Source: Candidatus Methylomirabilis limnetica (GTDB lineage Bacteria > Methylomirabilota > Methylomirabilia > Methylomirabilales > Methylomirabilaceae). From it: DNA of 32,000 nucleotides. The position numbers and the translations under genes were made by a program. Positions 1,582 through 30,653 of the stretch are shown in pieces. Location: the NCBI RefSeq assembly GCF_003044035.1, contig NZ_NVQC01000026.1, positions 30,001 to 62,000 of the forward strand, read 5' to 3'. The notes beneath the pieces were generated by a model, which saw only the letters and a list, made by a program, of their open reading frames with translations, ran no database searches and had not been told where the DNA came from. Positions within the stretch are counted from its first letter, which is position 1; each line of letters starts with the position of its first letter.

Positions 1582-2334
1582 ATGACGCTGAACATCGCGC
1601 ATCGGGGGGCTGCGGCGCTTGCGCCCGAGAATACGATGGCGGCCTTTGCAATGGCGGTCGAGTTGGGGGCCGATGCCATCGAGTTGGACCTTCACGTAAG
1701 CCGCGATGGCGAGCTGGTCGTCATTCACGATAACACGCTCGATCGGACCACCGATGGTGAGGGACCGGTTCATGCGCGTAGCCTGCAGGAGCTCAAGCAA
1801 CTGGATGCCGGTCGATGGTTTGGCGAGAGCTTTGCCGGTCAGCGTATCCCGACCCTCGATGAGGTCCTGGATCGTTTCTCCGGAAAGGTCCCGCTCGCGC
1901 TTGAGATCAAGGCAGGGTCAGCCTTTTTTCGCGGCATTGAGGAGCGGGTGGTAGCGGTCCTGCGTGAGCATCGGGTCGTCTCACGGGTCGCTGTCGCGTC
2001 CTTCGATCATCATGCACTACTGCGGCTGAAGGAACTGGAGCCCTGCCTTCGGACCGGCGCTTTGCTCGTGGGGCGGCCGGTATCAATGTCCGCAGTAGCC
2101 GGCCCCAGCAAGGCAGATGCCATGGCCCTCGAGTTCAGCCTTGTCACGAAAACAGAGATCGATGCCTGCCGCGCCGCCGGGCTTCAGCTTGTTGTCTGGG
2201 TAGTAAATGAGCCTGCTCAGATGCGCCACTTTATCGATCTCGGGATAGACGGAATCATCACCGACAGCCCAGACCTGTTGCGTCAGGTCCTGAGCGAACA
2301 GCGCGAGTCCCCGCAGGATTTAAAGAGTGAGTAA
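1582..2334 (+). CDS. Glycerophosphodiester phosphodiesterase (GDPD family)
   Basis: ATG at 1582 is preceded by ggaggag (1571-1577). NIAHRGAAALAPENT and ELDLHVSRDGELVVIHDNTLDRTT are GDPD catalytic motifs. The ORF-track start at 1555 is an upstream in-frame alternative. Confidence 0.8.
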   Translation: MTLNIAHRGAAALAPENTMAAFAMAVELGADAIELDLHVSRDGELVVIHDNTLDRTTDGEGPVHARSLQELKQLDAGRWFGESFAGQRIPTLDEVLDRFSGKVPLALEIKAGSAFFRGIEERVVAVLREHRVVSRVAVASFDHHALLRLKELEPCLRTGALLVGRPVSMSAVAGPSKADAMALEFSLVTKTEIDACRAAGLQLVVWVVNEPAQMRHFIDLGIDGIITDSPDLLRQVLSEQRESPQDLKSE

Positions 2335-2463
2335 CTACTCAACTCGCCTTGATCCCGCAGCGTAGTATTTTAAGACCGCACCTGCCATTCAGGGGCGTCG
2401 TGGCGTAGGCGCGACCATCTCGTCAGCAGGAGAAGAGGTCGCTGGAAGTTGAAGGAGCGCGGA

Positions 2464-4197
2464 ATGGCGGGTACAGGTACTGCCACAAACCAAGGCCTTG
2501 ACCGACCCTGGTTCGCCCACTATGACCAATGGGTTCCAACGCGCCTCGAGTATCCGGATATCCCGCTCCACTGCTTCCTCTTCGCCTCCGCCCAGAAGTA
2601 CCCGGATCGGGACGCGATCATCTTCTATGGCAAGAGGATCACCTATCGTGCCCTGGACGAGGCCGTCACACGGTTTGCCGCCGCCCTCGCAGACCGCGGG
2701 CTGGCGAAGGGCGATAGAGTCTCGCTCTTTCTCCCGAACTGTCCTCAGATGGTTATCGCCTACTACGGCACACTGCGCGCCGGATGTCTCGCGGTCTCGA
2801 CCAGCCCGCTCTACTCCACGCGGGAGCTTGAGCACCAACTGAATGACTCCGGCGCCGAGACCATCGTCGTGTTGTCGAAGCTCTACCCGCTCGTCAAAGA
2901 GGTCGCCCCAAAGACCGGCCTCAAGCGGATCATCGTCACGAATATCAAAGAGTACTTCCCGCCCTTGCTCCGGTTGCTCTTCACCCTCCTGAAGGAGAAG
3001 CGGCAGGGGCACCGGCCTGCAGTGGAGCGAAGACCGGGGACAGAGTGGTTCTCAGAGATGCTGACCTCCGCTCCCGCGAAGCCCCCCGCCACCACAGTCG
3101 GCCCGGATGACCCAGCGCTGCTGCAGTACACCGGCGGCACGACAGGGTTGTCCAAGGGGGCCGTGCTCACGCACAGGAATCTGGTGGCCAACACGATGCA
3201 AACGGGCGCTTGGCTGATGAAGCCTGTCCTGAGCCCAGTCGAAGGGAAGAACGACGGGATCGAGATCTTCCTTGGGGCGATCCCCTTCTTCCACGTCTAT
3301 GGGATGACGGTGGTGATGAATCTCTGCATCTCGCTGGGCCACACGATGGTACTCTTGCCGCAGTTCAAGGCGCAGGAAGTCCTGGAGACGATCTCCAAAT
3401 ATCGTCCCACCATCTTCCCCGGTGTTCCAACGATGTACGTCGCCATCAATAATTACCCGGAGGTGGGCAGGTACGACCTCCGTTCGATCAAGGCCTGCTT
3501 GAGTGGGGCTGCGCCACTACCGATCGAGGTGCAAACCAGGTTCGAGACGTTGACCGGCGCTCGTCTTGTGGAAGGGTACGGCCTGACCGAGACCTCTCCG
3601 GTCACACACGCGAACCCGCTCTTTGGCGCCAGGAGGGTCGGGACGATCGGGCTGCCGCTCCCAGATACCGACGCCAGGATCGTCGATCTGGAGAGCGGCG
3701 AGCGCACGCTGCCGCCAAAGGAGATCGGTGAGGTGGTGGTCAAGGGCCCCCAGGTGATGGCAGGGTATTGGAATCAGTCGAGCGAGACCGCCATGGTATT
3801 ACGGGATGGATGGTTGTACACGGGCGACATCGGCTATATGGATGAGCAGGGCTACTTCACCATTGTGGACCGCAAAAAAGAGCTGATCATCGCGGGTGGC
3901 TTTAATATCTATCCCCGGGAGGTTGAAGAACCCCTGTATGAGCATCCAAAGGTCAAAGAGGTAGTGGCGGTGGGCCTGCCTGACCCATACCGTGGGGAGA
4001 CGGTGAAGGTCTACATCGTTCTGAAAGAGGGTGAGCGCGCCACCGAGCAGGAAATTACCGACTTTTGCAAGCAGAGGATGGCAAAGCACAAGGTTCCTAC
4101 CCTGGTGGAGTTCAGGCAGGAGCTACCAAAAACACTCGTGGGTAAGGTGCTCCGGCGCGTCTTGCGCGAAGAAGAGATGGCCAAGCGGATATCGTGA
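2464..4197 (+). CDS. fadD: Long-chain fatty acid--CoA ligase (adenylate-forming AMP-binding enzyme)
   Basis: ATG at 2464 with gaaggag 6 nt upstream. AMP-binding signature LLQYTGGTTGLSKGAVLTH, GYGLTE, TGDIGYMDEQGYFTIVDRKKELI, and C-terminal KVPTLVEFRQELPKTLVGKVLRR. Confidence 0.8.
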   Translation: MAGTGTATNQGLDRPWFAHYDQWVPTRLEYPDIPLHCFLFASAQKYPDRDAIIFYGKRITYRALDEAVTRFAAALADRGLAKGDRVSLFLPNCPQMVIAYYGTLRAGCLAVSTSPLYSTRELEHQLNDSGAETIVVLSKLYPLVKEVAPKTGLKRIIVTNIKEYFPPLLRLLFTLLKEKRQGHRPAVERRPGTEWFSEMLTSAPAKPPATTVGPDDPALLQYTGGTTGLSKGAVLTHRNLVANTMQTGAWLMKPVLSPVEGKNDGIEIFLGAIPFFHVYGMTVVMNLCISLGHTMVLLPQFKAQEVLETISKYRPTIFPGVPTMYVAINNYPEVGRYDLRSIKACLSGAAPLPIEVQTRFETLTGARLVEGYGLTETSPVTHANPLFGARRVGTIGLPLPDTDARIVDLESGERTLPPKEIGEVVVKGPQVMAGYWNQSSETAMVLRDGWLYTGDIGYMDEQGYFTIVDRKKELIIAGGFNIYPREVEEPLYEHPKVKEVVAVGLPDPYRGETVKVYIVLKEGERATEQEITDFCKQRMAKHKVPTLVEFRQELPKTLVGKVLRRVLREEEMAKRIS

Positions 4198-4336
4198 GTC
4201 AGGTAGATAGACTGAAGGCTGTTAGGGGTAATCATGCGTGATTATACAAAACTCCGAAAAGATCTTGGATGGCTCTATTCGTGCCTTGCGAGATAATTTA
4301 GAACCTTCAGCCTGCAGTCTAAACACCTTGTAGCTA
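4195..4336 (+). mobile_element. Family-1 miniature cassette, copy a: (ctgaagg)-type inverted arms around a remnant four-helix-bundle gene
   Basis: Aligns by eye with 18599-18759 and, in reverse complement, with 30465-30593. Arms agactgaaggctg / cagccttcag..cagtct pair 12/13. The interior keeps ATG-CGT-GAT-TAT-ACA-AAA-CTC (MRDYTKL) and ..LDGSIRALRDN. The left end overlaps the fadD stop codon and is more diverged than in copy b. Confidence 0.6.
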
Positions 4337-4375
4337 TAAGAAGCGAATGGTTGAACTCTATTTAAGGTCTTATCG

Positions 4376-7198: not shown

Positions 7199-7380
7199 AA
7201 TGAACTACCCCGCAGCAAGCCGCGGGGTATCGTCTTCTGTTCTAGCCCGTCATTCCGTGCTTGACACGGAATCCAGTCGGACCCTCTGGATACCGGCGCC
7301 TGCCCCGGACCCCGATCCTGGGTCCGCCGGTATGACGAACTCGCGGCGAGCCGCAGGGAATGAACCCCCAGTGGTTTCAA
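7199..7380 (+). repeat. Family-2 structured repeat (182 bp), copy A
   Basis: Matches the reverse complement of 29024-29205 with about ten substitutions and no indels, counted by eye. Contains nested hairpins: ccccgcag/ccgcgggg, attccgtg-cttga-cacggaat, and ataccggcg...cgccggtat enclosing ggaccc/gggtcc. The octamer aatgaac(t/c) occurs at both ends. The repeat ends 15 nt before the ATG at 7396. Confidence 0.85.
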
Positions 7381-8052: not shown

Positions 8053-8178
8053 GCCCCCCGCGCTGCCCTTTATTGCGTCTATTGCGTGCGACGTCTATAG
8101 CGTCTGTTGCGTGCACTATTTACTGCGTCGTTGCGTCTATTGGCCTATCTCGAAACTCGAAACTATAAGCGTCTGACC
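8053..8178. repeat. Array of degenerate 8-9-mers (tattgcgtc / tatagcgtc type) in a convergent intergenic spacer
   Basis: The sequence ttattgcgtc tattgcgtg cgacgtc tatagcgtc tgttgcgtg ... tactgcgtc gttgcgtc tattggcc is directly visible. The same unit types (cattgcgt, and ctatagacg in reverse complement) recur at 23700-23796. Confidence 0.7.
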
Positions 8179-8181
8179 GGC

Positions 8182-8647
8182 TCAGGCCCCGCCCATGCCG
8201 GCTCGATAGGCATCTCCGGATTCGTAGTAATCAAGCCCGGAGTGGTCAAGCACCTCTTCCCCGACCAGGATGCGCAAGGTATTTGTCAGCTTCAGATGTT
8301 GGATGAACAGGTCATGCTCTGGCTTCAGGTCCGCTCGGGCCATCGGAGACTTGAAGTAGAACGAGAGCCACTCCTGAATGCCCGATAATCCGGCCCGTTG
8401 GGCCAGGTCCAGAAACAGTGCCAGATCAAGGGCTACCGGCGCTGCCAGGATGGAGTCCCGACAGAGGAAGTTGATCTTGATCTGCATCGGCTGACCGAGC
8501 CAACCGAAGATGTCGATGTTATCCCACCCCTCTTTGGCATCGCCCCGCGGCGGATAATACTCAATGCGGACCTTGTGGAACACCTTGCCATACAGATCCG
8601 GATAGAGCTCCGGCTGCAGGATCGCGCCCAGAACCGAGCTCTTGCTC
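8182..8647 (-). pseudogene. ino1: Displaced 3' fragment (last ~155 codons plus stop) of the myo-inositol-1-phosphate synthase gene
   Basis: 8179-8647 is collinear with 15986-16454 (469 bp, about ten substitutions, no indels, counted by eye). The reading frame and stop are preserved, but there is no 5' part: homology stops abruptly at 8647/8648. Confidence 0.85.
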
Positions 8648-8906
8648 TTAGCACCAGCGCAAGGCGGGAGAGCGTTCGCATACCGCGTACTCTAGCGCAG
8701 CTTGCGAATAGCGCGTTCGCGAATTACCGTTCATGGCCAGGTTCAGCCGACCACCAACGTGAATTTTAATCAGTTGGATTCGCCCGCCTGCCGCCCTGAT
8801 TGCAGCAATGCGCACCCGGCTGAACGTGAAGTACGGTGACGTCTGCGGACGCGGACGACGCTTGAGATTGGGCCCTGCCATTGGCGTCAAGCCACCTGCT
8901 GCCCGG

Positions 8907-11486
8907 CTATACCGGAATCGCGTAGCCCTTTTCTCGGAATAACTTCAGACAGGCATCGGCAACGATTGGATCGTACGCGCTGCCGCGCCCGCGCTCGATC
9001 TCGCCGAGCGCATTGTCGATGCCCAGCCCGGGCCGATACGGCCGGTGCGAGGACATCGCCTCGATTACGTCGGCCACCGCCATGATGCGCGCCTCGAGCA
9101 GGATCGCCTCGCCCTTCAGCCCCTGCGGGTAGCCGCCGCCGTCGATGCGCTCGTGGTGCTGCAGCGCGACCTCGGCCACCGGCCAGGGAAACTTCACGCT
9201 CTTTAGCACGTCATAGCCCGATTGCGCATGTCCCTGGATCAACTGAAACTCGATCGCGCTCAGTTTGCCGGGCTTGGACAGGATCTCCGCCGGAATGGTG
9301 ATCTTGCCGACGTCGTGCAGATGACCGGCCACGCGCAGGCCCTCCTGCCGGCGCGCGTCGAATCCAAGCTCGGCGCCGATGGCGACGGCGATTTCCGCCA
9401 CGCGCTGCTCGTGCCCGGCCGTGTAGGGATCGCGCAACGCGATCATGCTCATGGTCACATCCACCGTGCCCATGAGCGCGGCTTCGAGTTCGGCGACGTA
9501 GCGTTTGATCTCGGCTGCCGCGCGCTTTTTCTCGGTGATGTCCTGCGCCATGCCGATGGTGGCCGGCCTGTCCTCGAATGTGGCGAGGCGCCCCTGCACG
9601 CCCAACTCGATGACGGCGCCGTCCTTGCGCCGCACGCGCGCCTCGTAGGAGATCGAAGTCGCGCCGACACACAGCTTCTCCCGCTCCGTCTGCAGGATCG
9701 GCAGGTCTTCCGCAAGGGCGAGGTCATCGATGCGCAGGCCGACCAGTTCTCCCGCGCCGTAGCCGAGCATCTGCTCCAGCCGCGGATTGGCATACAGGAA
9801 CACGCCGTCCTGGGTAATGTAGATGCCGGTCAGCGACTGCTCGATCAAGCCGCGAAAGCGCTTCTCACTCTCCTCAAGGGACTGCTCCTGCCGCCTGCGC
9901 TCGCTGATGTCCCCGATGATGCCGGTGACGAACCAGCCCCCGGCGCTCTCCCATCGGGCGAGCGTGAGTTCCAGCGGAAACTCGCTTCCGTCCTGGCGCA
10001 GTCCATGCAATTCGACCGTCTTCCCGGCGAGGCGCGGCTCCGCGCCGGAACGGATGCGATGCATCCCCGCGAGATGCCCTTCGCGGTAGCGCTCCGGTAT
10101 CAGCAGGGTCATGGGCTGCCCCATCGCCTGCGCTTCGGTATAGCCGAAGATGATCTCGGCGCCGCGGTTCCAGCCCGCGATATTGCCCGCGCTGTCCGAA
10201 GTGATGATGGCTTCATAGGCGGACTGAGTGATCGCCAGGCTGCGTGCCTCGCTTTCGCGCAGCGCCGCCTCGCCACGCTTGCGCTCGGTGATGTCGCACA
10301 GGAAACACACGAACATCCCGTCCTCTCCGGAACGGAACTGCACGCTGACTTCGACGTCGAACACGCTCCCGTCCTTGCGGCGATGCTTCGTTTCGAAACG
10401 GTCCTCACCCTGCCCCACGATCTTCTGCAGGTGTTCGGCGGTGTCCCTAGCCGTTTCGACGGCCTCCAGGTCGGAAATCCGCAGGCTCAGCAGCTCCTCG
10501 ATGCTGTAGCCGCTCATCCGGATATAAGCCTCGTTGACTTCCAGCAGGCGCCCCTGCGTGTCCACCATCCAGAAGCCGTCCATGGCTGTCATGAGAACGG
10601 CCTGGTGCCGCGCCGCGCTCGCCCGCAGCGCCTCCTCCGCCTGCTTGCGCTCGGTGACGTCAATAACGATGGAATGCAGCAACAGGCGGCCGCCCGCTCC
10701 CTGCGCCGGAATCGGGCTGCTGTATACCTCGACGTCGCGCACTTCGCCATTGGCCAGGCGGTGGCGGAAGTCGAAGTGCGTTTTGCGCAGCGTGCGTGCC
10801 CGCTCCATTTCCGCCTGCACCTCGTCCACGGAGAGCACATTGATGTCCTTGATGTTCATCGCCTGCAGCCGCGCCGGATCGAAGCCGTAGTAATCGCAGG
10901 CGGCGCTATTGGCTTTCACGATGCGCCCGTCGGCCGGATCGATCAGCAACTTGACGACGCAGCTCTCGGCGAAAACGCTGCGGTAACGCGCTTCGCTCTC
11001 GCGCAGGGATCGGCTTGCCGTCTCCAGTTCCGCGGTGCGCTCGGCGACGCGGTGCTCCAGCGTCTCGTTTGCCGTGCGCAACTGGATTTCCAGGCGTTTG
11101 CGCTCGATCGCGTAACGCAGCGTGCGCTCGATGAGCGCGCCGCCTGATTCGCCTTTGACGAGGTAATCCTGCGCGCCAAGCTTGATCGCCCTCGAGCCGG
11201 CATGCGGTTCGTGCGACCCCGTCATCACCACCAGCGGCAGCGCCGGGGCGCGGTCCATGATCGCCTGCGCCGTGGCCAGCCCATCGCTGTCGGGCAGGCA
11301 AAGGTCGCACAGTACGGCGTCGAATGGCTCCGCGGCGATGCGTGCCAGCGCATCGGCCAGCCGCTCGACGCTGGTAATGGCGAACGCGCCCGGCGCCTGT
11401 TCGTCGAGCGCGGTGCGCAGCAGCAGCGCATCGCCCGGGTTGTCCTCGATCAGCAGCACGCGCAAGGCAGGCAGGGGCGTATCCAT
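8907..11486 (-). CDS. Response-regulator receiver / multiple PAS / HD-GYP phosphodiesterase hybrid protein
   Basis: N-terminus LRVLLIEDNPGDALLLR...AVLCDLCLPDSDG is a REC domain. Repeated PAS-like blocks follow (e.g. DITERKRGEAALRESE linkers). C-terminus HLHDVGK...HHERIDGGGYPQGL...ADVIEAMSSHRPYR is an HD-GYP domain. Confidence 0.85.
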   Translation of the reverse strand: MDTPLPALRVLLIEDNPGDALLLRTALDEQAPGAFAITSVERLADALARIAAEPFDAVLCDLCLPDSDGLATAQAIMDRAPALPLVVMTGSHEPHAGSRAIKLGAQDYLVKGESGGALIERTLRYAIERKRLEIQLRTANETLEHRVAERTAELETASRSLRESEARYRSVFAESCVVKLLIDPADGRIVKANSAACDYYGFDPARLQAMNIKDINVLSVDEVQAEMERARTLRKTHFDFRHRLANGEVRDVEVYSSPIPAQGAGGRLLLHSIVIDVTERKQAEEALRASAARHQAVLMTAMDGFWMVDTQGRLLEVNEAYIRMSGYSIEELLSLRISDLEAVETARDTAEHLQKIVGQGEDRFETKHRRKDGSVFDVEVSVQFRSGEDGMFVCFLCDITERKRGEAALRESEARSLAITQSAYEAIITSDSAGNIAGWNRGAEIIFGYTEAQAMGQPMTLLIPERYREGHLAGMHRIRSGAEPRLAGKTVELHGLRQDGSEFPLELTLARWESAGGWFVTGIIGDISERRRQEQSLEESEKRFRGLIEQSLTGIYITQDGVFLYANPRLEQMLGYGAGELVGLRIDDLALAEDLPILQTEREKLCVGATSISYEARVRRKDGAVIELGVQGRLATFEDRPATIGMAQDITEKKRAAAEIKRYVAELEAALMGTVDVTMSMIALRDPYTAGHEQRVAEIAVAIGAELGFDARRQEGLRVAGHLHDVGKITIPAEILSKPGKLSAIEFQLIQGHAQSGYDVLKSVKFPWPVAEVALQHHERIDGGGYPQGLKGEAILLEARIMAVADVIEAMSSHRPYRPGLGIDNALGEIERGRGSAYDPIVADACLKLFREKGYAIPV

Positions 11487-11490
11487 GGTT

Positions 11491-11940
11491 CTATCCTTTG
11501 GGCAAGACCACGACCTTGATCCAGAACTCTTCGATCTGGGCGACGATCTTCATGAACTGCGCCAGATCCACCGGCTTGGTCACGTAGCAGTTCGCATGCA
11601 GGTCGTAGGCGCGCAGCACGTCTTCCTCGGCGCGCGAAGTGGTCAGGACCACCACCGGGATGCGCTTGAGCGCGGGATCGGCTTTCACTTCGGCCAGCAC
11701 CGCGCGCCCGTCCTTCTTCGGCAGGTTCAGGTCGAGCAGGATCAGATCCGGCCGCGGCGCATCGCCGAAGCGGCCTTCGCGGCGCAGGAACTGCATCGCC
11801 TCGACGCCGTCCTCGACGACGTGGATGCGGTTGCTCATCTTGGCTTCGCGCATCGCCTCGATGGTGAGGCGGGCGTCGCCAGGGTTGTCTTCCACCAGCA
11901 GGATTTCGATCGAACGGGCGTTGACTTCATTGGAACTCAT
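11491..11940 (-). CDS. Single-domain CheY-like response regulator
   Basis: [14 protein letters not shown]...[15 protein letters not shown]...PVVVLTTS...ANCYVTKP are all receiver-domain landmarks. The stop lies 4 nt before the next start at 11486. Confidence 0.85.
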
Positions 11941-11945
11941 GGGAG

Positions 11946-11957
11946 TTTCTCCTCAGG
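11946..11957. repeat. Left copy of the 12-bp direct repeat tttctcctcagg (putative target-site duplication)
   Basis: Identical 12-mer at 12681-12692. The bases immediately outside both copies differ. Confidence 0.75.
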
Positions 11958-12650
11958 TTGCGGATTCAGAATTCAGAATTCAGAATTCAGAATCCAGAAT
12001 CCTACTACTGACTCCTGCCTCCTGCCTCCTGACTACTGCCTCCTGACTCCTGCCTCCTGACTCCTGCCTCCTGCCTCCTGACTACTGCCTCCTGCCTCCT
12101 GCCTCCTGACTACTGCCTCCTGACTCCTGCCTCCTGACTCCTGCCTCCTGCCTCCTGAATTTTGAATTCAGGAGTCAGAATTCCGGATGGTGCGCGAATA
12201 GGCTTCAAGCAGTTTGCTGACTTCTTCAAGCAACGGTATCAATTTGGAAACATCGCCGTAATCAAGGTCCATGGTGAGAATCAAATAGTATCGGGATTCT
12301 TCGAGGGAACCTTGTGCGATGTTGTAAAAGCGGAGTTTGTCTTCTGTTCCGCGTTTCTTGAATCCTTCCGCAATGTTTGCCGCAACGGAGACGGCCGCGC
12401 GTCGAAATTGAGACGACAGACCATAGGCCTCAGTTCGCGGGAATGTCCAGGACAAACGATAGGCCGCAAGTACAAACTGGTGGGCCTTTTGCCACACCAC
12501 CAAGTCCTCAAAGCGCGTCGCCGGCGACCTCATGCTGACTCCTCAATTTTGAATCCAGAATTCAGAATTCAGAATTCAGCCTCCTGACTCCTGACTCCTG
12601 CCTCCTGACTCCTGACTCCTGACTCCTGCCTCCTGACTCCTGACTCCTGA

Positions 12651-12680
<30 letters not shown>
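11958..12680 (-). mobile_element. Four-helix-bundle gene cassette flanked by compound heptamer arrays
   Basis: Same-sense arrays (gaattca)4-5 + (cctcctg/actcctg/actactg)n lie at 11958-12167 and 12534-12680 on either side of ORF 12168-12533. The block is bracketed by the 12-bp direct repeat. In-silico removal restores an ATGA kinase/regulator overlap. Confidence 0.7.
12168..12533 (-). CDS. Four-helix-bundle protein (23S rRNA intervening-sequence protein / Avd-like family)
   Basis: 121 aa. FEDLVVWQKAHQFVLAAYRLS, GLSSQFRRAAVSVAANIAEGF and AQGSLEESRYYLIL are the hallmark helices of this family. gaggag lies 6 nt upstream of the ATG. Confidence 0.85.
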   Translation of the reverse strand: MRSPATRFEDLVVWQKAHQFVLAAYRLSWTFPRTEAYGLSSQFRRAAVSVAANIAEGFKKRGTEDKLRFYNIAQGSLEESRYYLILTMDLDYGDVSKLIPLLEEVSKLLEAYSRTIRNSDS

Positions 12681-15263
<2,583 letters not shown>

Positions 15264-15623
15264 TTCTATTTTGACCCTGCACTTTTTCGGAGACCTGATA
15301 TTGACCTATATCAATGGTTGTCTCTTTTTCACGGGCTCATGCGGTTGCATAGCGGCGGCGTGCCGAAGGTTTCGCAAAACAAATTGATAAGAAATCGCTT
15401 TTCGGGCGGTACGGGCACGCGCCCGTGGAGGCCGCAGGAAGAAGCGCACTCATGGGGGAAAGTGTGTGGGAATCATGTTGGAGAGTCAAGCTTAAAGTGG
15501 GATCACGCGTGTTGCGGCGCCGAGGCCGATCTGAATACCGACGCGGACCCGGCGTGCTGCGAGCAGGGCCGCACGTCGGCAGACCGCTCCTGTCGCGATG
15601 GTCTAATCCGTTCGCGTCCATCA

Positions 15624-15863
15624 TCACCGGTTCAGTGTCGTCATCCGGACAGGGTCATCGAGCCAGGGTTCGATGACCCTGTCCGCCATCTCAGGCGATG
15701 CTCTTGCTGAAGAGACGCGCACACCCTGTTGCCACACTCCGAGATGGCGAAGGATGCGCTCGATGACCTGCCGGTCCTCACTGAGCGAGACGAGCCGCCT
15801 GTCCCGCTGACACGTCGGACAGAGCAAGAGGATCCGCGTCTCAGACTGTCTTGATGAGTTCAC
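15624..15863 (-). pseudogene. C-terminal remnant of an IS91-family (Y2/rolling-circle) transposase
   Basis: ..LLCPTCQRDRRLVSLSEDRQVIERILRHLGVWQQGVRV...VIEPWLDDP resembles, from memory, the zinc-ribbon plus ILRHLGLW... tail of IS91-type transposases. There is no room for the ~300-aa catalytic part before the ino1 repeat. Confidence 0.5.
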
Positions 15864-15985
15864 GCCATGTCTCCCGAGGGGATCCGGCGGGGTTGGTGTT
15901 CCGATACATCGATCACCTCCACGGTCGTGCCGGCGGCAAAGAAGGGATCGAGGTAGTGCGGCCCCCTTCGACGAAGCTCAGGACA

Positions 15986-16454
15986 GGCTCAAGCCCCGCC
16001 CATGCCTGCTCGATAGGCATCTCCGGATTCGTAGTAATCAAGCCCGGAGTGGTCAAGTACCTCTTCCCCGACCAGGATGCGCAAGGTATTTGTCAGCTTT
16101 AGATGTTGGATGAACAGGTCATGCTCCGGCTGCAGGTCCACTCGGGCCATCGGAGACTTGAAGTAGAACGAGAGCCACTCCTGAATGCCCGATAATCCGG
16201 CCCGTTGGGCCAGGTCCAGAAACAGTGCCAGATCAAGGGCTACCGGCGCTGCCAGGATGGAGTCCCGACAGAGGAAGTTGATCTTGATCTGCATCGGCTG
16301 ACCGAGCCAACCGAAGATGTCGATGTTATCCCACCCCTCTTTAGCATCGCCCCGCGGCGGATAATATTCAATGCGGACCTTGTGGAACACCTTGCCATAC
16401 AGATCCGGATAGAGCTCCGGCTGCAGGATCGCGCCCAGCACCGAGCTCTTGCTC
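15986..16454. repeat. Right copy of the 469-bp direct repeat (3' end of intact ino1)
   Basis: Collinear with 8179-8647. Homology starts 3 nt beyond the stop codon and ends inside the gene. Confidence 0.9.
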
Positions 16455-17362
16455 ACCTCCTTGGTTCTGAACGATCCCTGATCATCCAGCACCTCGCCGT
16501 CCCGGTTCCCCAGGATGTTGGTGGAAAACCAGCCGGTCAGCCCCAGCATCTTGGCCTTCAGCCCTGGCGCGACCACGGTTTTCAGAAAGGTCTGGCCCGT
16601 CTTGAAGTCCTTCCCGGCGATCGGGACGTGCCTTTTGTGAGCGTACTCTACCAGCGCCGGGATATCCACAGCCAGGTTGGGTGAGCCATTCGCAAAGGGC
16701 ACGCCAGCCGAGATAGCGGCATAGGTATAGATCATGCACGGGGAGATTTCCGGGGCGTTCGCCTTGAGGCCAGCTTCAAAGGCCTCGATCGTCTCGTGCA
16801 CGGGGGACGGCTGCATGAAGACCTCTGTTGATCCACACCAGACCATCACGACACGCTGGACCCCCTCTCTCCGACGGAAGGCCTCGATATCTTCGATCAG
16901 CATATCCGCCAGGTGTTTCTTGGTCGGGCCGGCTTTAAGGTGCGGCCCCGACAACCTCCGCACATAGGCCTGCTCGAAGACCGCTGGCCACGGCCTGACG
17001 GATTCCAGTTGGTCTTTGACCTGGTCCAGCAACTCCCTGGACAGAACCCCGGCATGGCATGCGATCTGATAGGCGTTCTCAGGAAAGATGTCCCAGCCAC
17101 CGAAGACCAGATCGTTAAGATTAGTGAGGGGGACCACCTCCTTGATCAGGGCAAACCGAGGGTTGGTCCGCTTGCCCAGGCGCATCCGCTGCATCTGCGT
17201 GAGGGAACCGTGCGGTTGGGCAAGACCTTTGTTGATCAGGTGGACCCCTGCGATAAGGGTAGTGGCCACCGCACCCAACCCCGGGAGCAGCACCCCAAGC
17301 GTACCTGTGGCCGGCTTGATCGCCCTGATCAGTTCCGGATAGAGAGAACTCTTTTCGCTCAT
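15989..17362 (-). CDS. ino1: myo-Inositol-1-phosphate synthase (archaeal/bacterial type)
   Basis: The start at 17362 (MSEKSSLYPE..) overlaps the upstream stop by 4 nt. NAD-binding LLPGLGAVATTLIAG, LVFGGWDI, AGKDFKTGQT, WFSTNILGNRDGEVL, NFLCRDSILAAPVALDLALFLDL. The ORF-track extension to 17689 overlaps the upstream gene and is rejected. Confidence 0.85.
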   Translation of the reverse strand: MSEKSSLYPELIRAIKPATGTLGVLLPGLGAVATTLIAGVHLINKGLAQPHGSLTQMQRMRLGKRTNPRFALIKEVVPLTNLNDLVFGGWDIFPENAYQIACHAGVLSRELLDQVKDQLESVRPWPAVFEQAYVRRLSGPHLKAGPTKKHLADMLIEDIEAFRRREGVQRVVMVWCGSTEVFMQPSPVHETIEAFEAGLKANAPEISPCMIYTYAAISAGVPFANGSPNLAVDIPALVEYAHKRHVPIAGKDFKTGQTFLKTVVAPGLKAKMLGLTGWFSTNILGNRDGEVLDDQGSFRTKEVSKSSVLGAILQPELYPDLYGKVFHKVRIEYYPPRGDAKEGWDNIDIFGWLGQPMQIKINFLCRDSILAAPVALDLALFLDLAQRAGLSGIQEWLSFYFKSPMARVDLQPEHDLFIQHLKLTNTLRILVGEEVLDHSGLDYYESGDAYRAGMGGA

Positions 17363-18585
17363 GCCTTTACCCTTTCCCTGCGTGAGGTCCACAGCAATAT
17401 GAAGAAAAAGAGCGGCGCACCGAAGGCGGCCAGAACCAAAAACCAATGAGCCTTTCCTAGTGCCGATAGGATGACGACAAGGTAGATGAAATCCCGCTTT
17501 GCGAGGGCATCGGCAAGAGTGATAAGGCGGGATGGGGCCTCGGAGTTGGTGACGGAGGTAAAGAGCGGCCCCTCTGAGACCTTGTTCCGCATGGTCTGTC
17601 GGTAGACGAGACCGGCTGACAGGAGGGTGCCGATCACCGCGGAAACCGCTAAGACCAAGGGGGCAGGAGCCTTGATGGCCATCTGCCATCCCAAGCCGAT
17701 GCAGACAAAGACTACCGAGTGTACAACATTATCTCCCCAGAAGTCCAGGATGCCGCCCAGGCGAGACTCCAGATACTTGAGCCTGGCGATCTCCCCATCG
17801 CAGCCGTCCAGGATCGAATGCAAGAGGAACAGGAGCGCGCCGGTCAGTTGATACGCTGGTATGGACGAGAGAAAGAACAGGGCCCCCAATAGACCTATCG
17901 CCACGCTTACGGCTGTCATCTGGTTCGGGGTGATGTCCGTGCGTACGAGGCATCGGGTGACTGCCAGTGAAATCTTTCGCTCGAAATGCCTCGACATGAA
18001 GCCTTCCGTATCTTTGACCAGACCGCGCAGGAGCCACCGCTCGGCACTACGAAGATCCGCCCGGTTCGAGACCCGGACCCAGCCGGCACCGTCTATGAGA
18101 GCGCCCACTCTTTGGTAGGTCCGCTCCAGTCCGGAGAACACAGACAGATCATCGTCAGCACGCCCAATCATTGACAGAAGGACCTTGGGGTCAGCCGTCT
18201 CAACGGCAGCGATTCCGCTGGCTGGGACATGCATCGTCTCAGCGCGTAACGGCATCTCGGTGAGATGCGTGAGCAGCGATGGGCGCAGGAGAAGGTCAGA
18301 GGCGAGTACCAGGATACGGCTGGAGTGCGGGTGGCCCGTCTGAGTGCAACGCACAGGCAGGTCGGTGAGCTTCTCTGGAGGAAGCAGTACTGCCCGCGTT
18401 CCTGTCAAGAGCCTCGTGAGTCCTGGCCAACCGGTATCCACCACTAGAATCTCATGGCAGCCCGCTCGGGAGGCGACCATCACCATACGCCGAAGCAACG
18501 GGATCCCGGCTACAACGGTATCCGGGGAGATCTCTCCCGAGCCCTTCGTCATCATGATCAGGACCGTGGCTCCCTTCATGACCAT
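17359..18585 (-). CDS. IPCT/DIPPS-like fusion: nucleotidyltransferase-like N-domain plus CDP-alcohol phosphatidyltransferase membrane domain
   Basis: C-terminal half has the CDP-alcohol transferase motif DGCDGEIARLKYLESRLGGILDFWGDNVVH and about 6 hydrophobic helices. The N-half has an NTP-transferase-like fold signature with the G-x-G-T/S-R and PK motifs altered (MMTKGSGEISPDTVV). An alternative ATG lies at 18579. Confidence 0.75.
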   Translation of the reverse strand: MVMKGATVLIMMTKGSGEISPDTVVAGIPLLRRMVMVASRAGCHEILVVDTGWPGLTRLLTGTRAVLLPPEKLTDLPVRCTQTGHPHSSRILVLASDLLLRPSLLTHLTEMPLRAETMHVPASGIAAVETADPKVLLSMIGRADDDLSVFSGLERTYQRVGALIDGAGWVRVSNRADLRSAERWLLRGLVKDTEGFMSRHFERKISLAVTRCLVRTDITPNQMTAVSVAIGLLGALFFLSSIPAYQLTGALLFLLHSILDGCDGEIARLKYLESRLGGILDFWGDNVVHSVVFVCIGLGWQMAIKAPAPLVLAVSAVIGTLLSAGLVYRQTMRNKVSEGPLFTSVTNSEAPSRLITLADALAKRDFIYLVVILSALGKAHWFLVLAAFGAPLFFFILLWTSRRERVKA

Positions 18586-18598
18586 ACGTTCACACTGC

Positions 18599-18759
18599 GT
18601 AACTACTCAGGTAGATAGGCTGAAGGCTGAAGGCTTTTAGGGGAAAGTCATGCGTGATCATACAAAACTCCGAAAAGGTCTTGAATGGCTCGATTCGTGC
18701 CTTGCGAGATAATTTAGAACCTTCAGCCTTCAGCCTTCAGCCTAAACACCTTGTAGTTA
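18599..18759 (+). mobile_element. Family-1 miniature cassette, copy b, with 9-bp flanking direct repeat
   Basis: tcacactgc at 18590-18598 and 18760-18768 flanks the element. Termini gtaactactcagg ... ccttgtagtta are inverted. A 17-bp perfect stem forms between aggctgaaggctgaagg and ccttcagccttcagcct. The interior holds MRDHTKL.. and ..EKVLNGSIRALRDN remnants in different frames. Confidence 0.7.
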
Positions 18760-18774
18760 TCACACTGCAATGTA

Positions 18775-18818: not shown

Positions 18819-19901
18819 CTACACGGACAAATGCTGGCCCCCTCTGGCGTGCGATTCCTTGGCACGGTGCAGAAGTTGTACGCAGTGCGACGCCATGGCG
18901 AGGTTCTCTCCGCTCCGCTCAGTGTCCGAAATCTCCTGTAGAAACTCGTCCCTCACCTGGCAGAACCACTCCGGATGGTGGGAGCCCTGCGAGAGCGGCT
19001 GTTCGAATGTCCAGTCCTGCTCGTCCCCGTCGCTTTTTAGAATCAGGGTGCCATCCTCTATCCGGATGGCCCCACGGGTCCCCTCGATCACAGCGCTATT
19101 GCCACGTGAAGACGCGGCCCACGTCAGAAAGATATCGGCCACTGCCTCAGGAAAGTTCACCTGAACGGTCGCCGTATCCTCAACGGGCCATTCTGGATGC
19201 ACTCGCTTCTCGAGCGTGGCGGATATCGTCCTCGGGTCTTGACAAAGCCAGCGTAGGATGATGTACAGGGCGTGCCAACCGTGGTCAAGCAGGATTCCGC
19301 CACCCGCCATAGCCGGATCGAGCCGCCAGTTGCCGTGCGCTGCTCCACCTTGACTGGGCTCAGGACAGCCCTCGACGGAGCCTATGGTGAGCTCAGTCGA
19401 ACCGCTCAGGACAGGCCCAACCGAGATTGATGGTTCACGACGGAGTACCTGCCAGCTTATGTGCCGCACTGTCCCGATCTGCCCCTCCAGGATTAAGTCC
19501 GTTGCCTTTTTGATGATCGGCGCGTACAGCCAGTTATGGACGGTATGCAGGACTCGCCCGCTTTCTACTTGCGCACGCCTCACGAGTCGCAGCTCATCGG
19601 GAGAGAGCACGAGAGGCTTTTCACATAAGACATGGAGTCCCCGCTGGAGGGCCAGATGGGTGATAGATGCGTGGGTTCCGGGGGGCGTGCAGATATCGAT
19701 AAAATCGAGGGGCTCGGAGGCAAGCAGCGCCTCGACCTCAGTGTAGAGCCTCGCCTTTGGAAGACGCCCTCTGGCCTCGACGAGCCGCGGCTCGATGGCA
19801 TCAGCGGCGGCAACGATCTGGGCCTGCTCGCACCCCTCCCATCCGGGCAGATGCCCATTTACCGCTACATTTCCCAGGCCGATGATGGCGCCTCTCAACA
19901 T
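18819..19901 (-). CDS. Gfo/Idh/MocA-family NAD(P)-dependent oxidoreductase
   Basis: N-terminal Rossmann IIGLGNVAVNGHLPGW, EKPL motif (LCEKPLV), and C-terminal GGGILLDHGWHALY typical of the family. Confidence 0.75.
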   Translation of the reverse strand: MLRGAIIGLGNVAVNGHLPGWEGCEQAQIVAAADAIEPRLVEARGRLPKARLYTEVEALLASEPLDFIDICTPPGTHASITHLALQRGLHVLCEKPLVLSPDELRLVRRAQVESGRVLHTVHNWLYAPIIKKATDLILEGQIGTVRHISWQVLRREPSISVGPVLSGSTELTIGSVEGCPEPSQGGAAHGNWRLDPAMAGGGILLDHGWHALYIILRWLCQDPRTISATLEKRVHPEWPVEDTATVQVNFPEAVADIFLTWAASSRGNSAVIEGTRGAIRIEDGTLILKSDGDEQDWTFEQPLSQGSHHPEWFCQVRDEFLQEISDTERSGENLAMASHCVQLLHRAKESHARGGQHLSV

Positions 19902-19910
19902 CTCTTAAAG

Positions 19911-20048
19911 CAGGGTTTAGGGTACAGGGTTTAGGGTTTAGGGAAAAAGTCGATGATTTGCCTCATCCCTATACCCTTATACGCACACCCTATACCCTGT
20001 CCCCTTTACCCTCCACCCTATACCCTGTCTTCATCCCCTATACCCTGT
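19911..20048. repeat. cagggt...accctg array element E1 (gggttta arm / ccctata arm)
   Basis: (gggttta)n at 19913-19953 and (ccctata/ccctgtc)n at 19968-20048 are near-complementary. The interior gggaaaaagtcgatgatt resembles gggaaagtcatgcgtgat of family 1. The right end accctgtcttttc is identical to 22291-22303. It overlaps the last 6 codons of the aminotransferase ORF. Confidence 0.65.
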
Positions 20049-22255: not shown

Positions 22256-23005
22256 TTAAAACAGGGTAGAGGGTAGAGGGTGTAGGGTAGACCCTGTCTT
22301 TTCATGTTCTTGTACAAGAGTTTCGGCCAGGTGAAGATCCTCGGCGCGATCGACGTCGATGACCTGGTCAATGACCACCCCATAGACCGGGATCCCGCGA
22401 TCAACCATCCAGATCAGGAAGTCACGAAGCCGATCCAGTGTAGACGGGTGAGGGGCTTCGGCAAAGATTGAGCCGGGCACAAGGTAGAGTCCGGCGGTTA
22501 CGACGTCACCCGAGTCACCCCCTATTCCCGTTACGCGCCCGGAAGGATCGAGGGTCACCCAGAGAGGCTTCTCGTCGGCCACGAATGGCGTCACGGCCAA
22601 AACGACGGAAGCCTGACTGCAGCGCCGGGCCTGATCGACGAATCGGCGGAAGGCCGGTTCCGGACAGATCCAGTCCACGGTAGACATGAGGATGGGGCCT
22701 GGACCGGATCGCCCACCAACCTCCCAGAAGCTTTCGTACGATGAGCGTGTAGTTTTCACGATGCATTGGACGTCGAGATTCGGGAAACGCTCCTGAATGA
22801 ATGTGGCGCACTCCCGGTCGTCCTCATTGAAGATGATCCGTAGCTGCGTGATACCGACCTTCACAAAATTGCTCATCACCCGCTCGATCAACGGGATACC
22901 TGCGACCGGCACCATCGGCTTCGGCATCCTCAAGCCGTCCCGTTTCAACCGGGAACCTTCCCCGGCCGCAATGATGCCCCCTATCAGGGTTGTGGGCGCG
23001 TTCAC
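22256..23005 (-). CDS. Sugar/alcohol-phosphate nucleotidyltransferase (NTP_transferase family)
   Basis: Intact signature IIAAGEGSRLKRDGLRMPKPMVPVAGIPLIERV. The start overlaps the HAD gene stop by 4 nt. The C-terminal TGSTLHPLPSTL tail is encoded by the (agggtag) array. Confidence 0.75.
   Translation of the reverse strand: MNAPTTLIGGIIAAGEGSRLKRDGLRMPKPMVPVAGIPLIERVMSNFVKVGITQLRIIFNEDDRECATFIQERFPNLDVQCIVKTTRSSYESFWEVGGRSGPGPILMSTVDWICPEPAFRRFVDQARRCSQASVVLAVTPFVADEKPLWVTLDPSGRVTGIGGDSGDVVTAGLYLVPGSIFAEAPHPSTLDRLRDFLIWMVDRGIPVYGVVIDQVIDVDRAEDLHLAETLVQEHEKTGSTLHPLPSTLF
22262..22297. repeat. cagggt...accctg array element E2 (36 bp, in frame inside the 3' end of the nucleotidyltransferase ORF)
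   Basis: The sequence is cagggta gagggta gagggtg tagggta gaccctgt. Its flanks ttttaaaa / cttttc are near-identical to those of E1. Confidence 0.6.
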
Positions 23006-23712
23006 AGGAGTATCTCCCGAAGATCTGCTAGCGACCTGATCATAGGGTCACCCGGGCAACAGGGTACGGCAGCACCGGAGTGGTCTGATACCAGCCAGAT
23101 ATGGGGCATCCCGAGACCTTTCGCCCCTTCCATGTCTCGAGGCAATGAGTCGCCGACAAATACCGCCTCTCGTGGATCGAGTTGTAACTGCATCAGCGCG
23201 GCCTGAAAGATCCTAGGGTCCGGCTTGGTGAACCCGACGCGCGCCGAATCAACCATTACACTCATGAGCGGGGTCAGCCCACTCTCAAGACAGACGCGTT
23301 CGAGATTGCCATAGAAGTTCGAGATGATGCCGAGTCGAAATCGTACTGACAGCTCCCGCAGGATCGTCAGGTTAGAACGGATCTTATCCAGTGAGTCCTG
23401 AAGAAACCTGTCGCACAGACGCGACGCTACCCTCGCATCGGCCATATTCAACGCCTCCAGTACGCCCGTGACCTGGAACAGGAGGCTCTCTCGAAACGAG
23501 TAGTCCGAGAATCCCCGCGCCACCAGAGCATCATCGCCAACATAGTAGGCTTGATCGTATCGATCCCGCTCTATCTCCATATGCTCGGCGAGATAGAACG
23601 GATAGAATCTATCTTTCCAGGCGACTCCGTCGGCATCAAGGGTTCCCCCGAAATCGAAGAGAATAGCTTTTGGCAACTCTTTTACCATCCGGCTTCGCGT
23701 CATCGCGTTCAT
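23002..23712 (-). CDS. HAD-superfamily hydrolase (probable phosphatase)
   Basis: Motif I AILFDFGGTLD, motif II LGIISNF, motif IV FVGDSLPRDMEGA. The start is uncertain (ATGs at 23712, 23703, 23688) because the first codons lie in the 8-mer array. Confidence 0.7.
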   Translation of the reverse strand: MNAMTRSRMVKELPKAILFDFGGTLDADGVAWKDRFYPFYLAEHMEIERDRYDQAYYVGDDALVARGFSDYSFRESLLFQVTGVLEALNMADARVASRLCDRFLQDSLDKIRSNLTILRELSVRFRLGIISNFYGNLERVCLESGLTPLMSVMVDSARVGFTKPDPRIFQAALMQLQLDPREAVFVGDSLPRDMEGAKGLGMPHIWLVSDHSGAAVPCCPGDPMIRSLADLREILL

Positions 23713-23796
23713 TGCGTCATTGCGTTCATTGCGTCATTGCGTCGTACGCTATAGACGCTATAGACGCTATAGACGCAATAGCCGCTATAGACGTAC
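23700..23796. repeat. Paired arrays (cattgcgt)4-5 and (ctatagacg)4-5
   Basis: The tandem units are directly visible. The two arrays are partly reverse-complementary (gcgtc / gacgc cores). They fill the spacer between the PmbA-like stop and the HAD start. Confidence 0.75.
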
Positions 23797-25373: not shown

Positions 25374-25443
25374 AAGGGTTTAGCGGTTTAGCGGTTAGAA
25401 CCCACCGGCCATGCTTTTCCTCTACCCTATACCCTCTACCCTT
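25374..25443. repeat. aagggt...accctt array element E3 (ggtttagc arm / ctaccct arm)
   Basis: (ggtttagc)2 and (ctaccct/ataccct)3 flank ..ccatgcttttcc.. (reverse complement ggaaaagcatgg, like the family-1 interior). It abuts the TldD-like stop codon at 25444. Confidence 0.6.
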
Positions 25444-29023: not shown

Positions 29024-29205
29024 TTGAATCCACTGGGAGTTCATTCCCCGCAGCTTGCCGCGAGTTCGTCATACCGGCGGACCCCGGATCGGAGTCCGGG
29101 GCAGGCGCCGGTATCCAGAGGGCCCGACTGGATTCCGTGTCAAGCACGGAATGACGGGCCAGAACAGAAGACGATACCCCGCAGCTTGCTGCGGGGTAGT
29201 TCATT
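29024..29205 (-). repeat. Family-2 structured repeat (182 bp), copy B
   Basis: Reverse complement of 7199-7380 with about ten substitutions. It fills the whole spacer between the GGDEF gene stop (29205-29207) and the cinA start, ending 19 nt before the cinA GTG. Confidence 0.85.
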
Positions 29206-30422: not shown

Positions 30423-30464
30423 GCTATCACTCAAGGCTGACACAACCTCTTCACGTGATGACTG

Positions 30465-30593
30465 GTAACTACTCAAGGTGTTTAGGCTGAAGGCTGAAGG
30501 TTCTGAATTATCTCGCAAGGCACGAATCAAGACCGTTCTCGGTTTCTACCCCTAAAAGCCTTCAGCCTTCAGCCTACCCACCTGAGTACTTAC
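30465..30593 (-). mobile_element. Family-1 miniature cassette, copy c (further deleted interior)
   Basis: Termini are gtaactactcaagg ... cctgagtacttac. The ggctgaaggctgaagg / ccttcagccttcagcc arms are present. It retains the attcgtgccttgcgagataatt segment (IRALRDN) in reverse complement but lacks the MRD..TKL part. Confidence 0.65.
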
Positions 30594-30653
30594 GATGGAT
30601 GCTACACGATTTCGTTTGCCGGACAAGAAAAAACCAGGCAGCGAGCGGCCGCG

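Follow-up and report, generated by a model that had tools for sequence, protein, structure and literature searches.

Mobile insertion cassettes (MICs) are defined by inverted repeats, a target duplication, a passenger gene and mobilisation in trans (PMC3913671). Canonical IS66 elements have ends that start GTAAGCG and are accompanied by 8-bp repeats (PMC11946415), and in ISDge4 of Deinococcus geothermalis, which belongs to the ISBst12 group of the IS66 family, the ends are GTGACTACTCAGCA and GTAACTGCTCAGCA, the repeat is 8 bp and transposition has been shown experimentally (PMC12898284). The intervening sequences (IVSs) of rRNA form stems that are cut by RNase III; the origin of the 23S rRNA IVS of Coxiella is still unexplained, and both 'remnant of transposition' and 'mobile element whose ORF aids mobility' (ORF, open reading frame) are still listed as untested ideas about it (PMC4990558). 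Here we describe a family of hairpin elements that is represented by three copies, a, b and c, in a 32-kb stretch of the genome of Candidatus Methylomirabilis limnetica (hereafter the window), and compare it with fetched genome and metagenome loci, about 165 in all, which carry labels such as L002. With a probability of roughly 0.8, the three copies are miniature inverted-repeat transposable elements (MITEs), internally deleted from a transposase-less, MIC-like cassette of about 450 bp that is probably moved in trans.

The long form of the family has inverted repeats, a target duplication and a passenger gene and therefore fits the definition of a MIC, and the short forms fit MITEs. Like MIC231 of Bacillus cereus, the qnrD/qnrS2 mic elements and MITEs that descend from insertion sequences (ISs), the family has IS-type inverted repeats and a target duplication and holds no transposase gene; with MICs it also shares the passenger gene of the long form and the presumed mobilisation in trans. 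It differs from them in that the passenger is a four-helix-bundle gene of the type found in 23S rRNA IVSs, heptamer arrays prone to slippage lengthen the inverted repeats, members from several phyla have protein identities of at least 90%, and the mobilising transposase is only a candidate family. Its ends, GTAACT(A/G)(C/T)TCAG, and its 8-bp duplication resemble those of the ISBst12-group IS66 elements ISDge4 and ISGka4, whereas it lacks DDE_Tnp_IS66, measures 61-551 bp against about 1.4-1.6 kb, and carries heptamers and a four-helix-bundle gene between the ends.

The 23S rRNA IVSs with an S23p ORF (Coxiella burnetii, Leptospira, Brucella and the Xanthomonas-type XCC0516) resemble the family in their terminal inverted-repeat stem, their PF05635 ORF and their ORF-deleted variants, and in the Coxiella IVS, as here, tandem heptamers of variable copy number lie next to a Shine-Dalgarno (SD) sequence and a start codon (PMC4990558). 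Unlike IVSs, the family occupies spacers between protein-coding genes and shows 8-bp target duplications and IS66-like termini. No rRNA was found in the fetched loci by blastn of the E. coli rrn operon, and an Rfam search of eleven long loci returned one tRNA only; by location, the elements are not IVSs. Neither element pattern was present in viral contigs. On plasmids, blastn of the full element gave no match, and a protein search recovered only cyanobacterial paralogues at about 45% identity. We found no description in the open-access literature of PF05635 cassettes as transposon-like, or of such MITEs in Nitrospira or NC10.

The three copies and their full-length parents

The features of the three copies, in window positions, are as follows (TIR, terminal inverted repeat).

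4199-4337, + strand: copy a, of the same deletion class as copy b, 38 nt upstream of the start of an MMPL gene (4376)
4234-4296, + strand: fusion ORF of copy a, 20 codons
4325-4337, + strand: right TIR of copy a; the left TIR of this copy is without its outer 8 nt
18591-18598: left target-site duplication of copy b, 8 bp (CACACTGC), read directly
18599-18760, + strand: copy b, a complete miniature element of 162 nt; the four-helix-bundle sense is on this strand, antisense to the flanking operon
18599-18612, + strand: left TIR of copy b, GTAACTACTCAGGT, identical to the family consensus from 170 ends
18617-18635, + strand: left heptamer array of copy b, (AGGCTGA) x2.7, from Tandem Repeats Finder
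18639-18643, + strand: parental SD-like aGGGG of copy b, preceding the 5' ORF remnant
18650-18671, + strand: 5' remnant of the parental four-helix-bundle ORF in copy b (MRDHTKL...); the parents L028, L012, L032 and L022 begin AGGGGtaaATC ATG CGT GAT CAC ACA AAA CTT CGG
18650-18712, + strand: 20-codon fusion ORF of copy b (MRDHTKLRKGLEWLDSCLAR), not a gene
18675-18716, + strand: 3' remnant of the parental ORF in copy b (KVLNGSIRALRDNL), in a frame different from that of the 5' remnant and with the parental stop codon mutated; the parents end ...VETEKVLNGLIRALRDN[LV]*
18720-18743, + strand: right heptamer array of copy b, (CCTTCAG) x3.4, complementary to the left array, from Tandem Repeats Finder
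18748-18760, + strand: right TIR of copy b, ACCTTGTAGTTAT, which differs from the consensus ACCTGAGTAGTTAC by a 2-nt deletion and a final C>T
18761-18768: right target-site duplication of copy b, 8 bp (CACACTGC), read directly
30457-30464 and 30594-30601: 8-mers flanking copy c, GATGACTG and GATGGATG, a degenerate duplication with a 6/8 match
30465-30593, - strand: copy c, 129 nt, of a second deletion class and inverted relative to copies a and b

An earlier note, made from the letters of the window, had described three collinear copies. The three copies exist, with ends refined as listed, and copies a and b share one orientation and 91% identity over 96 nt; copy c, however, matches them only as the reverse complement (93-96% identity over 46-54 nt) and is not collinear with them. 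Both TIRs are kept in copies b and c and the right TIR only in copy a, and the target duplication matches at 8/8 positions in copy b and 6/8 in copy c and is absent from copy a. The 9-bp repeat tcacactgc reported to flank copy b was seen at 18590-18598 and 18760-18768, but the duplication itself is 8 bp long and the ninth T is the last base of the element. Each copy folds, as RNA, into one long hairpin on either strand, with energies of -66.8/-70.1 kcal/mol for copy b (z -7 to -8.6) and -60.9/-67.0 kcal/mol for copy c (z about -10). The perfect heptamer stem described for copy b is also there, over 19-20 bp. None of the copies encodes a full-length four-helix-bundle domain (about 105-120 aa): copies a and b hold 8 + 13 codons in different frames and copy c about 15 codons.

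A scan for the invariant core TTCGTGCCTTGCGAGATAA, with each species represented by a single genome, gave 33 loci with 30 real copies, mostly in Nitrospirota and NC10 assemblies and with 2 from Planctomycetota; one assembly labelled 'Patescibacteria' evidently belongs to NC10 instead, as shown by an acyl-CoA ligase with 87% identity to that of the window. At least 120 loci were added by a metagenome scan with the left-end pattern. The full-length parents with heptamer arms, for which the earlier note had proposed a search, were found at L012, L022, L028 and L032 (435-532 bp) and then, again intact, at L067, L097 and L133, and full-length members overall span 435-551 bp. Their 5' part consists of GTAACTACTCAGGT, a 4-nt asymmetric spacer (AGAT), (AGGCTGA)n, GGCTTTTAGGGGtaaATC and ATG CGT GAT CAC ACA AAA CTT CGG GCA...; the 3' part consists of the remainder of a 119-aa ORF ending ...VETEKVLNGLIRALRDN[LV]*, followed by (CCTTCAG)n, CCT(A/G)AAC and ACCTGAGTAGTTAC. 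The 5' and 3' ends of these parents are those of the miniature copies, base for base, and the MRD[Y/H]TKL stretch that had been likened to the N-terminus of four-helix-bundle proteins is indeed how the genes of L028, L012, L032 and L022 start. The TIR consensus GTAACTACTCAGGT, 14 nt long, is 83-99% conserved per position among the 170 ends, and its position 7 is polymorphic for A and G.

The sole ORF of every full-length element is a PF05635/TIGR02436 four-helix-bundle gene. Its product is a bona fide four-helix-bundle protein: it matches TIGR02436 with 119 bits and Avd weakly, and among solved structures the XCC0516 pentamer 2GSC comes closest (E=1e-25). Pairwise ratios of non-synonymous to synonymous substitution (dN/dS) among seven intact ORFs were 0.08-0.5, most of them within 0.08-0.3 and near 0.1; the protein is therefore maintained by purifying selection. 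The subfamily is abundant and little diverged, with more than 120 clusters at >=90% identity, mostly on short contigs.

Outside the elements, an isolated GTAACTACTCA at 2331-2341, just upstream of the acyl-CoA ligase gene, equals the first 11 nt of the family TIR. Neither heptamers nor a partner end were seen near it; by chance alone, the window should contain about 0.2 near-matches of this kind.

Deletion junctions, target duplications and an empty site

Of the parental gene, copies a and b retain the SD, 8 codons from the start (MRD[HY]TKLR) and, in a different frame, the final 13 codons (KVLNGSIRALRDN), with the deletion junction at a short AAAC..CG microhomology. Exactly this junction recurs at 11 independent sites, whose flanks are unrelated (window a, window b, L003, L004, L010, L013, L020, L023, L024 and two in L081, with L041 counted as the same site as window b). 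The microhomology deletion that joined codon 8 to the last 13 codons therefore occurred once, and the miniature form multiplied afterwards and reached many sites, essentially within NC10. In the class of copy c, from which the N-terminal remnant has been lost as previously noted, the SD is joined to ..VETEK..; this junction is common to L031, and copy c carries an extra 9-nt deletion. Other deletion classes prevail in Nitrospira, the commonest being 167-181 nt long and keeping the last 21-34 codons, and arms-only forms of 61-63 nt exist.

If the minis were instead remnants of separately inserted full-length cassettes that had decayed in place, never being mobile as minis, deletions at orthologous sites would be their source, and one such case was seen: L011, a 179-nt mini, and L032, full length at 446 nt, have the same right flank and represent one orthologous site. 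For copies a and b this explanation is largely refuted by the single junction that they and nine further sites show between different flanks; the junction common to copy c and L031 and the perfect 8-bp duplications around arms-only and mini copies also argue against it, and we give it only a slim chance as an account of the minis.

The 20-codon fusion ORFs at 4234-4296 and 18650-18712 are present as had been stated, intact in both window copies and preceded by the SD-like AGGGG, and might be taken to encode a functional 20-residue peptide. However, the ORF is broken at 6/11 independent sites (start lost, stop gained or stop lost), its substitutions comprise 18 non-synonymous against 7 synonymous changes, spread evenly over codon positions, and 4/4 differences between copies a and b are non-synonymous. 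Broken at these sites and evolving neutrally, it was rejected as a gene and is a by-product of the fusion; a functional peptide has practically no chance of being the explanation.

The flanking 8-mers were compared for 85 unique elements with both ends among all the loci listed. They matched at 8/8 positions in 18 elements, at 7/8 in 20 and at 6/8 in 11 (>=7/8 in 38/85, >=6/8 in 49/85), whereas permuted partners reached >=7/8 in 0.12% and adjacent outer 8-mers reached 7/8 in none. The target duplication of the family is 8 bp. It is found around full-length copies (L070, 8/8; L028, 7/8; L142, 7/8) as well as around the 63-nt arms-only copy of L111 (8/8); cassette and minis alike insert with an 8-bp target duplication.

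A comparison with relatives lacking the insertion, which had been suggested as a check, showed that the site of copy b is empty in L037-L039. In these loci, where the IPCT/DIPPS gene downstream is 91% identical, the 62-nt spacer is uninterrupted and holds a single GCGTGTG(A), with a 1-nt difference, in the place where the window has GCAGTGTG-element-GCAGTGTG. The element is also missing from L040, a 94% relative. In L041, a 99% relative, the site is occupied, with one heptamer unit fewer in the right array and with C as the last base of the element, which is T in copy b. The heptamer arm is where short-read assemblies of the same strain are broken. Copy b is a recent insertion into the 62-nt spacer before the IPCT/DIPPS gene.

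The hairpins could also be primarily host elements for regulation or RNA processing, such as repetitive extragenic palindromic (REP)-like sequences or IVS-like RNase III sites. Their stems are very stable in either orientation, the window copies lie 13-42 nt upstream of start codons, and the RNase III cleavage of rRNA IVS stems mentioned above offers a precedent. The empty site in the 91% relative, where the operon is otherwise the same, and the target duplications speak against this explanation; host palindromes of the REP type or of bacterial interspersed mosaic elements have no target duplication and stand at orthologous positions, and the family does not match them. There was no Rfam match in the window and neither a sigma-70-like promoter nor an intrinsic terminator around copy b. 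Biases in orientation (68/109 neighbours co-oriented) and in position (a start codon within 60 nt of the right end in 20 cases and of the left end in about 10), both by crude ORF calls, were modest and not significant. Covariation was not seen either: in 12 class-1 copies judged by inspection, G/A variants of the outermost heptamer pair as G-C, A-T, A.C and G.T at about chance. The interior of the elements is related to four-helix-bundle genes, copies other than b have flanking repeats, and no conservation at orthologous positions was found. A primary role as host regulatory elements is thus quite unlikely.

A candidate transposase family and the four-helix-bundle protein

The family ends GTAACTACTCAGGT, together with the 8-bp duplication, match single-ORF elements of the IS66 family (ISBst12 group). 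Besides ISDge4, these include ISGka4 of the Geobacillus kaustophilus plasmid pHTA426, which has the ends GTATCTATTCAGCCC...GGGCTGAATAGTTAC and the 8-bp duplication GACGAGTT and whose transposase matches PF03050 DDE_Tnp_IS66 and zf-IS66. The first 12 nt of the left TIR show one mismatch to each ISDge4 end and to the right end of ISGka4, and the A/G at TIR position 7 parallels the two ISDge4 ends; both of these ISs come from other phyla. Because termini and duplication length agree with those of single-ORF IS66 elements, we favour, though with less assurance than the reading of the copies as MITEs, mobilisation in trans by an ISBst12-type DDE transposase encoded elsewhere; such an IS66-type enzyme, supplied from another locus, would move long and short elements alike. 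The family would then be at most a non-autonomous derivative or a parasite of the IS66 family.

In ISGka4 (L165, pHTA426 14107-15741), the inner part of the terminal repeat reads GTAACTA-TTCAGCC-C, in which TTCAGCC corresponds to the heptamer unit GGCTGAA on the opposite strand. This may be a coincidence, or the heptamers may reiterate a transposase-binding core.

The four-helix-bundle protein might itself bring about mobility, or be indispensable to it as a heptamer-binding co-factor, in which case the family would be self-mobilising. A mobility role for the ORFs of rRNA IVSs is an old idea, reportedly of Ralph and McClelland. In favour of such a role, full-length elements have no ORF other than the four-helix-bundle gene, which purifying selection maintains, heptamers accompany PF05635 genes at 12168-12533 of the window, on cyanobacterial plasmids and in the Coxiella IVS, and neither the window, which holds no transposase gene, nor about 1 Mb of fetched loci yielded a transposase partner. 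On the other hand, a fixed 8-bp duplication with GTAACT.CTCAG ends is the signature of DDE transposases of the IS66 family, the fold (a 2GSC-like pentamer) is without known catalytic activity, and NC10 genomes with many minis had no matching full-length copy in the sampled loci. We consider self-mobilisation by this protein unlikely.

Several observations weigh against reading the copies as MITEs that are mobilised in trans. A tblastn search with the ISGka4 transposase found no IS66-type transposase in the window or in the roughly 1 Mb of fetched loci, and no element contained a DDE_Tnp_IS66 ORF or any other transposase; an autonomous partner in these lineages is hypothetical. The longest elements code only for the four-helix-bundle gene, which is the gene kept by purifying selection, and its protein may have a part in mobility. 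Some minis, to judge from L011 and L032, arise by decay in place. About 40% of the elements are without a recognisable duplication, which could be due to decay, to flanking deletions as in copy a or to mis-called ends, and there is no evidence of selection on hairpin pairing as RNA. The proposal of the earlier note that the copies are non-autonomous, MITE-like, internally deleted derivatives of four-helix-bundle cassettes is nevertheless borne out by parents with identical ends, by the junction at 11 sites, by the 8-bp duplication and by the empty site.

A search for long pairs of TIRs found only L002, in which a higB-higA toxin-antitoxin pair is enclosed by two minis, one of 138 nt and one of 63 nt (1979-3326). 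The outer 8-mers, AAAAATAG and AGAAATAG, agree at 7/8 positions, and the arrangement therefore looks like a composite transposon.

Genomic surroundings, other repeats and implications

By its best protein hits, the window belongs to an NC10/Methylomirabilota bacterium. All window copies sit between protein-coding genes, and their neighbours are as had been described. Copy a lies between an acyl-CoA ligase gene (fadD) and an MMPL transporter gene. Copy b occupies the spacer between a GFO/IDH/MocA oxidoreductase gene (18819-19901, - strand) and the IPCT/DIPPS gene (17359-18585, - strand), a CDP-alcohol phosphatidyltransferase gene that is followed by ino1, and it lies 13 nt from the IPCT/DIPPS ATG (18585). 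Copy c is found between genes for a DUF520 protein and a GAF-GGDEF protein, 42 nt upstream of the ATG of the latter (30422, - strand).

At the site of copy a, relatives at 95%, 91% and 89% identity have the order fadD, DUF309 (256 aa), MMPL, with a fadD that is 12 codons longer. The window has neither these 12 codons nor any part of the DUF309 gene, copy a is 8 nt short at the outside of its left end, and the following filler stands at the junction.

4190-4198, + strand: junction filler tatcgtgag, which gives the acyl-CoA ligase gene two new last codons and a stop (4195-4197)

The acyl-CoA ligase now ends ...AKRIS*, its stop lying at the junction with copy a, and the right end of copy a is where the DUF309-MMPL spacer begins. 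By this comparison, copy a coincides with an adjacent deletion, which took its left end together with DUF309 and the terminal 12 codons of fadD.

The window further contains a heptamer-flanked gene of the same protein family.

12168-12533, - strand: four-helix-bundle gene, a paralogue within another type of heptamer-flanked cassette (PF05635, E=4e-33), 41% identical to the parent protein

The earlier note had aligned the C-terminal remnant KVLNGSIRALRDN of the minis with this gene, and BLASTP of the parent protein indeed aligns KVLNGLIRALRDN with KLLEAYSRTIRNS, at 41% overall identity. The further proposal that the minis derive from the same type of cassette does not stand. The cassette measures about 735 nt, is bounded by the 12-nt direct repeat TTTCTCCTCAGG (11946-11957 and 12681-12692) and has direct arrays, (ATTCAGA)5 and (CTGCCTC/CTGACTC)21 on one side and (GAATTCA)4 and (CTCCTGA)14 on the other. 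With 41% identity, direct arrays and different heptamers, it was rejected as the parent of the minis. Its insertion appears to extend the C-terminus of a histidine kinase ORF into the array. Such other heptamer-flanked four-helix-bundle genes, at 12168-12533 and on cyanobacterial plasmids, resemble the family in their protein family (41-47% identity), in arrays on both sides and in a location between or inside operons (PMC3936711); unlike the family, they have mostly direct arrays of other heptamers, and no GTAACT... termini were seen in them.

Heptamers flanking PF05635 genes elsewhere comprise AAAGCTA/AAAGCCA, AGCTGTT and GACAGAT across L166 (the Pseudanabaena plasmid pPg_01, where the gene lies between cas6 and cas4), L167 (a Calothrix plasmid) and the Coxiella IVS (PMC4990558). 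PF05635 genes of unrelated lineages are thus flanked by heptamer arrays that differ in their unit from one lineage to the next, a general association between this protein family and heptamer repeats. Gene-less heptamer arrays (AGGGTTT, CCCTATA, AGGGTAG, CCTCTAC) and arrays of 8-9-nt units also occur in spacers of the same operon region as the window copies (19912-20026, 22263-22291, 25419-25442 and 23697-23793).

Two other repeats were noticed. A 300-nt direct repeat with 97% identity (8175-8474 and 15982-16281) represents the 3' end of ino1, duplicated next to an MlaC gene; in the relatives L037 and L040, MlaC and MMPL come directly after ino1. The block of about 7.5 kb between the two repeat copies (8475-15981), with a PAS/HD response regulator, the four-helix-bundle cassette and the histidine kinase, has the appearance of an insertion or rearrangement that has the 300-nt repeat at its borders. 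A second repeat family consists of intergenic 182-nt copies at 7199-7380 and 29024-29205, which are 95% identical and mutually inverted and have AATGAAC(T) and a CCCCGCAGCAAGCCGCGGGG palindrome near both ends; it is possibly another MITE.

Because the arms are inverted, any transcript through an element would carry a perfect stem of 20-30 bp, a plausible substrate of RNase III as in rRNA IVSs. Copy b places such a predicted stem, perfect over at least 20 bp, at a distance of 13 nt from the start codon of IPCT/DIPPS, and effects of the copies on termination, RNA processing or translation, as suggested in the earlier note, are conceivable.

A broader and rather doubtful idea is that PF05635 genes with heptamer arms form a widespread, unrecognised class of transposase-less cassettes that would use IS66/ISBst12 transposases, perhaps aided by pentameric four-helix-bundle proteins binding the heptamers, and that these cassettes are the source of rRNA IVSs with and without an ORF. 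If it were true, the question of IVS origin, now 30 years old, would be settled.

The family described here offers a testable route to the origin of rRNA intervening sequences, as it provides clear hallmarks of transposition for a cassette built like an IVS. Its ends are defined, its duplication is fixed at 8 bp, one site is empty in relatives, its deletion derivatives form a series and there is a candidate transposase family. It also explains the presence of four-helix-bundle genes inside unrelated operons and the breaks of NC10 and Nitrospira assemblies at these sites. For the genome under study, this means that one copy stands 13 nt before the IPCT/DIPPS start codon, and that another coincides with the loss of DUF309 and a shortened acyl-CoA ligase.

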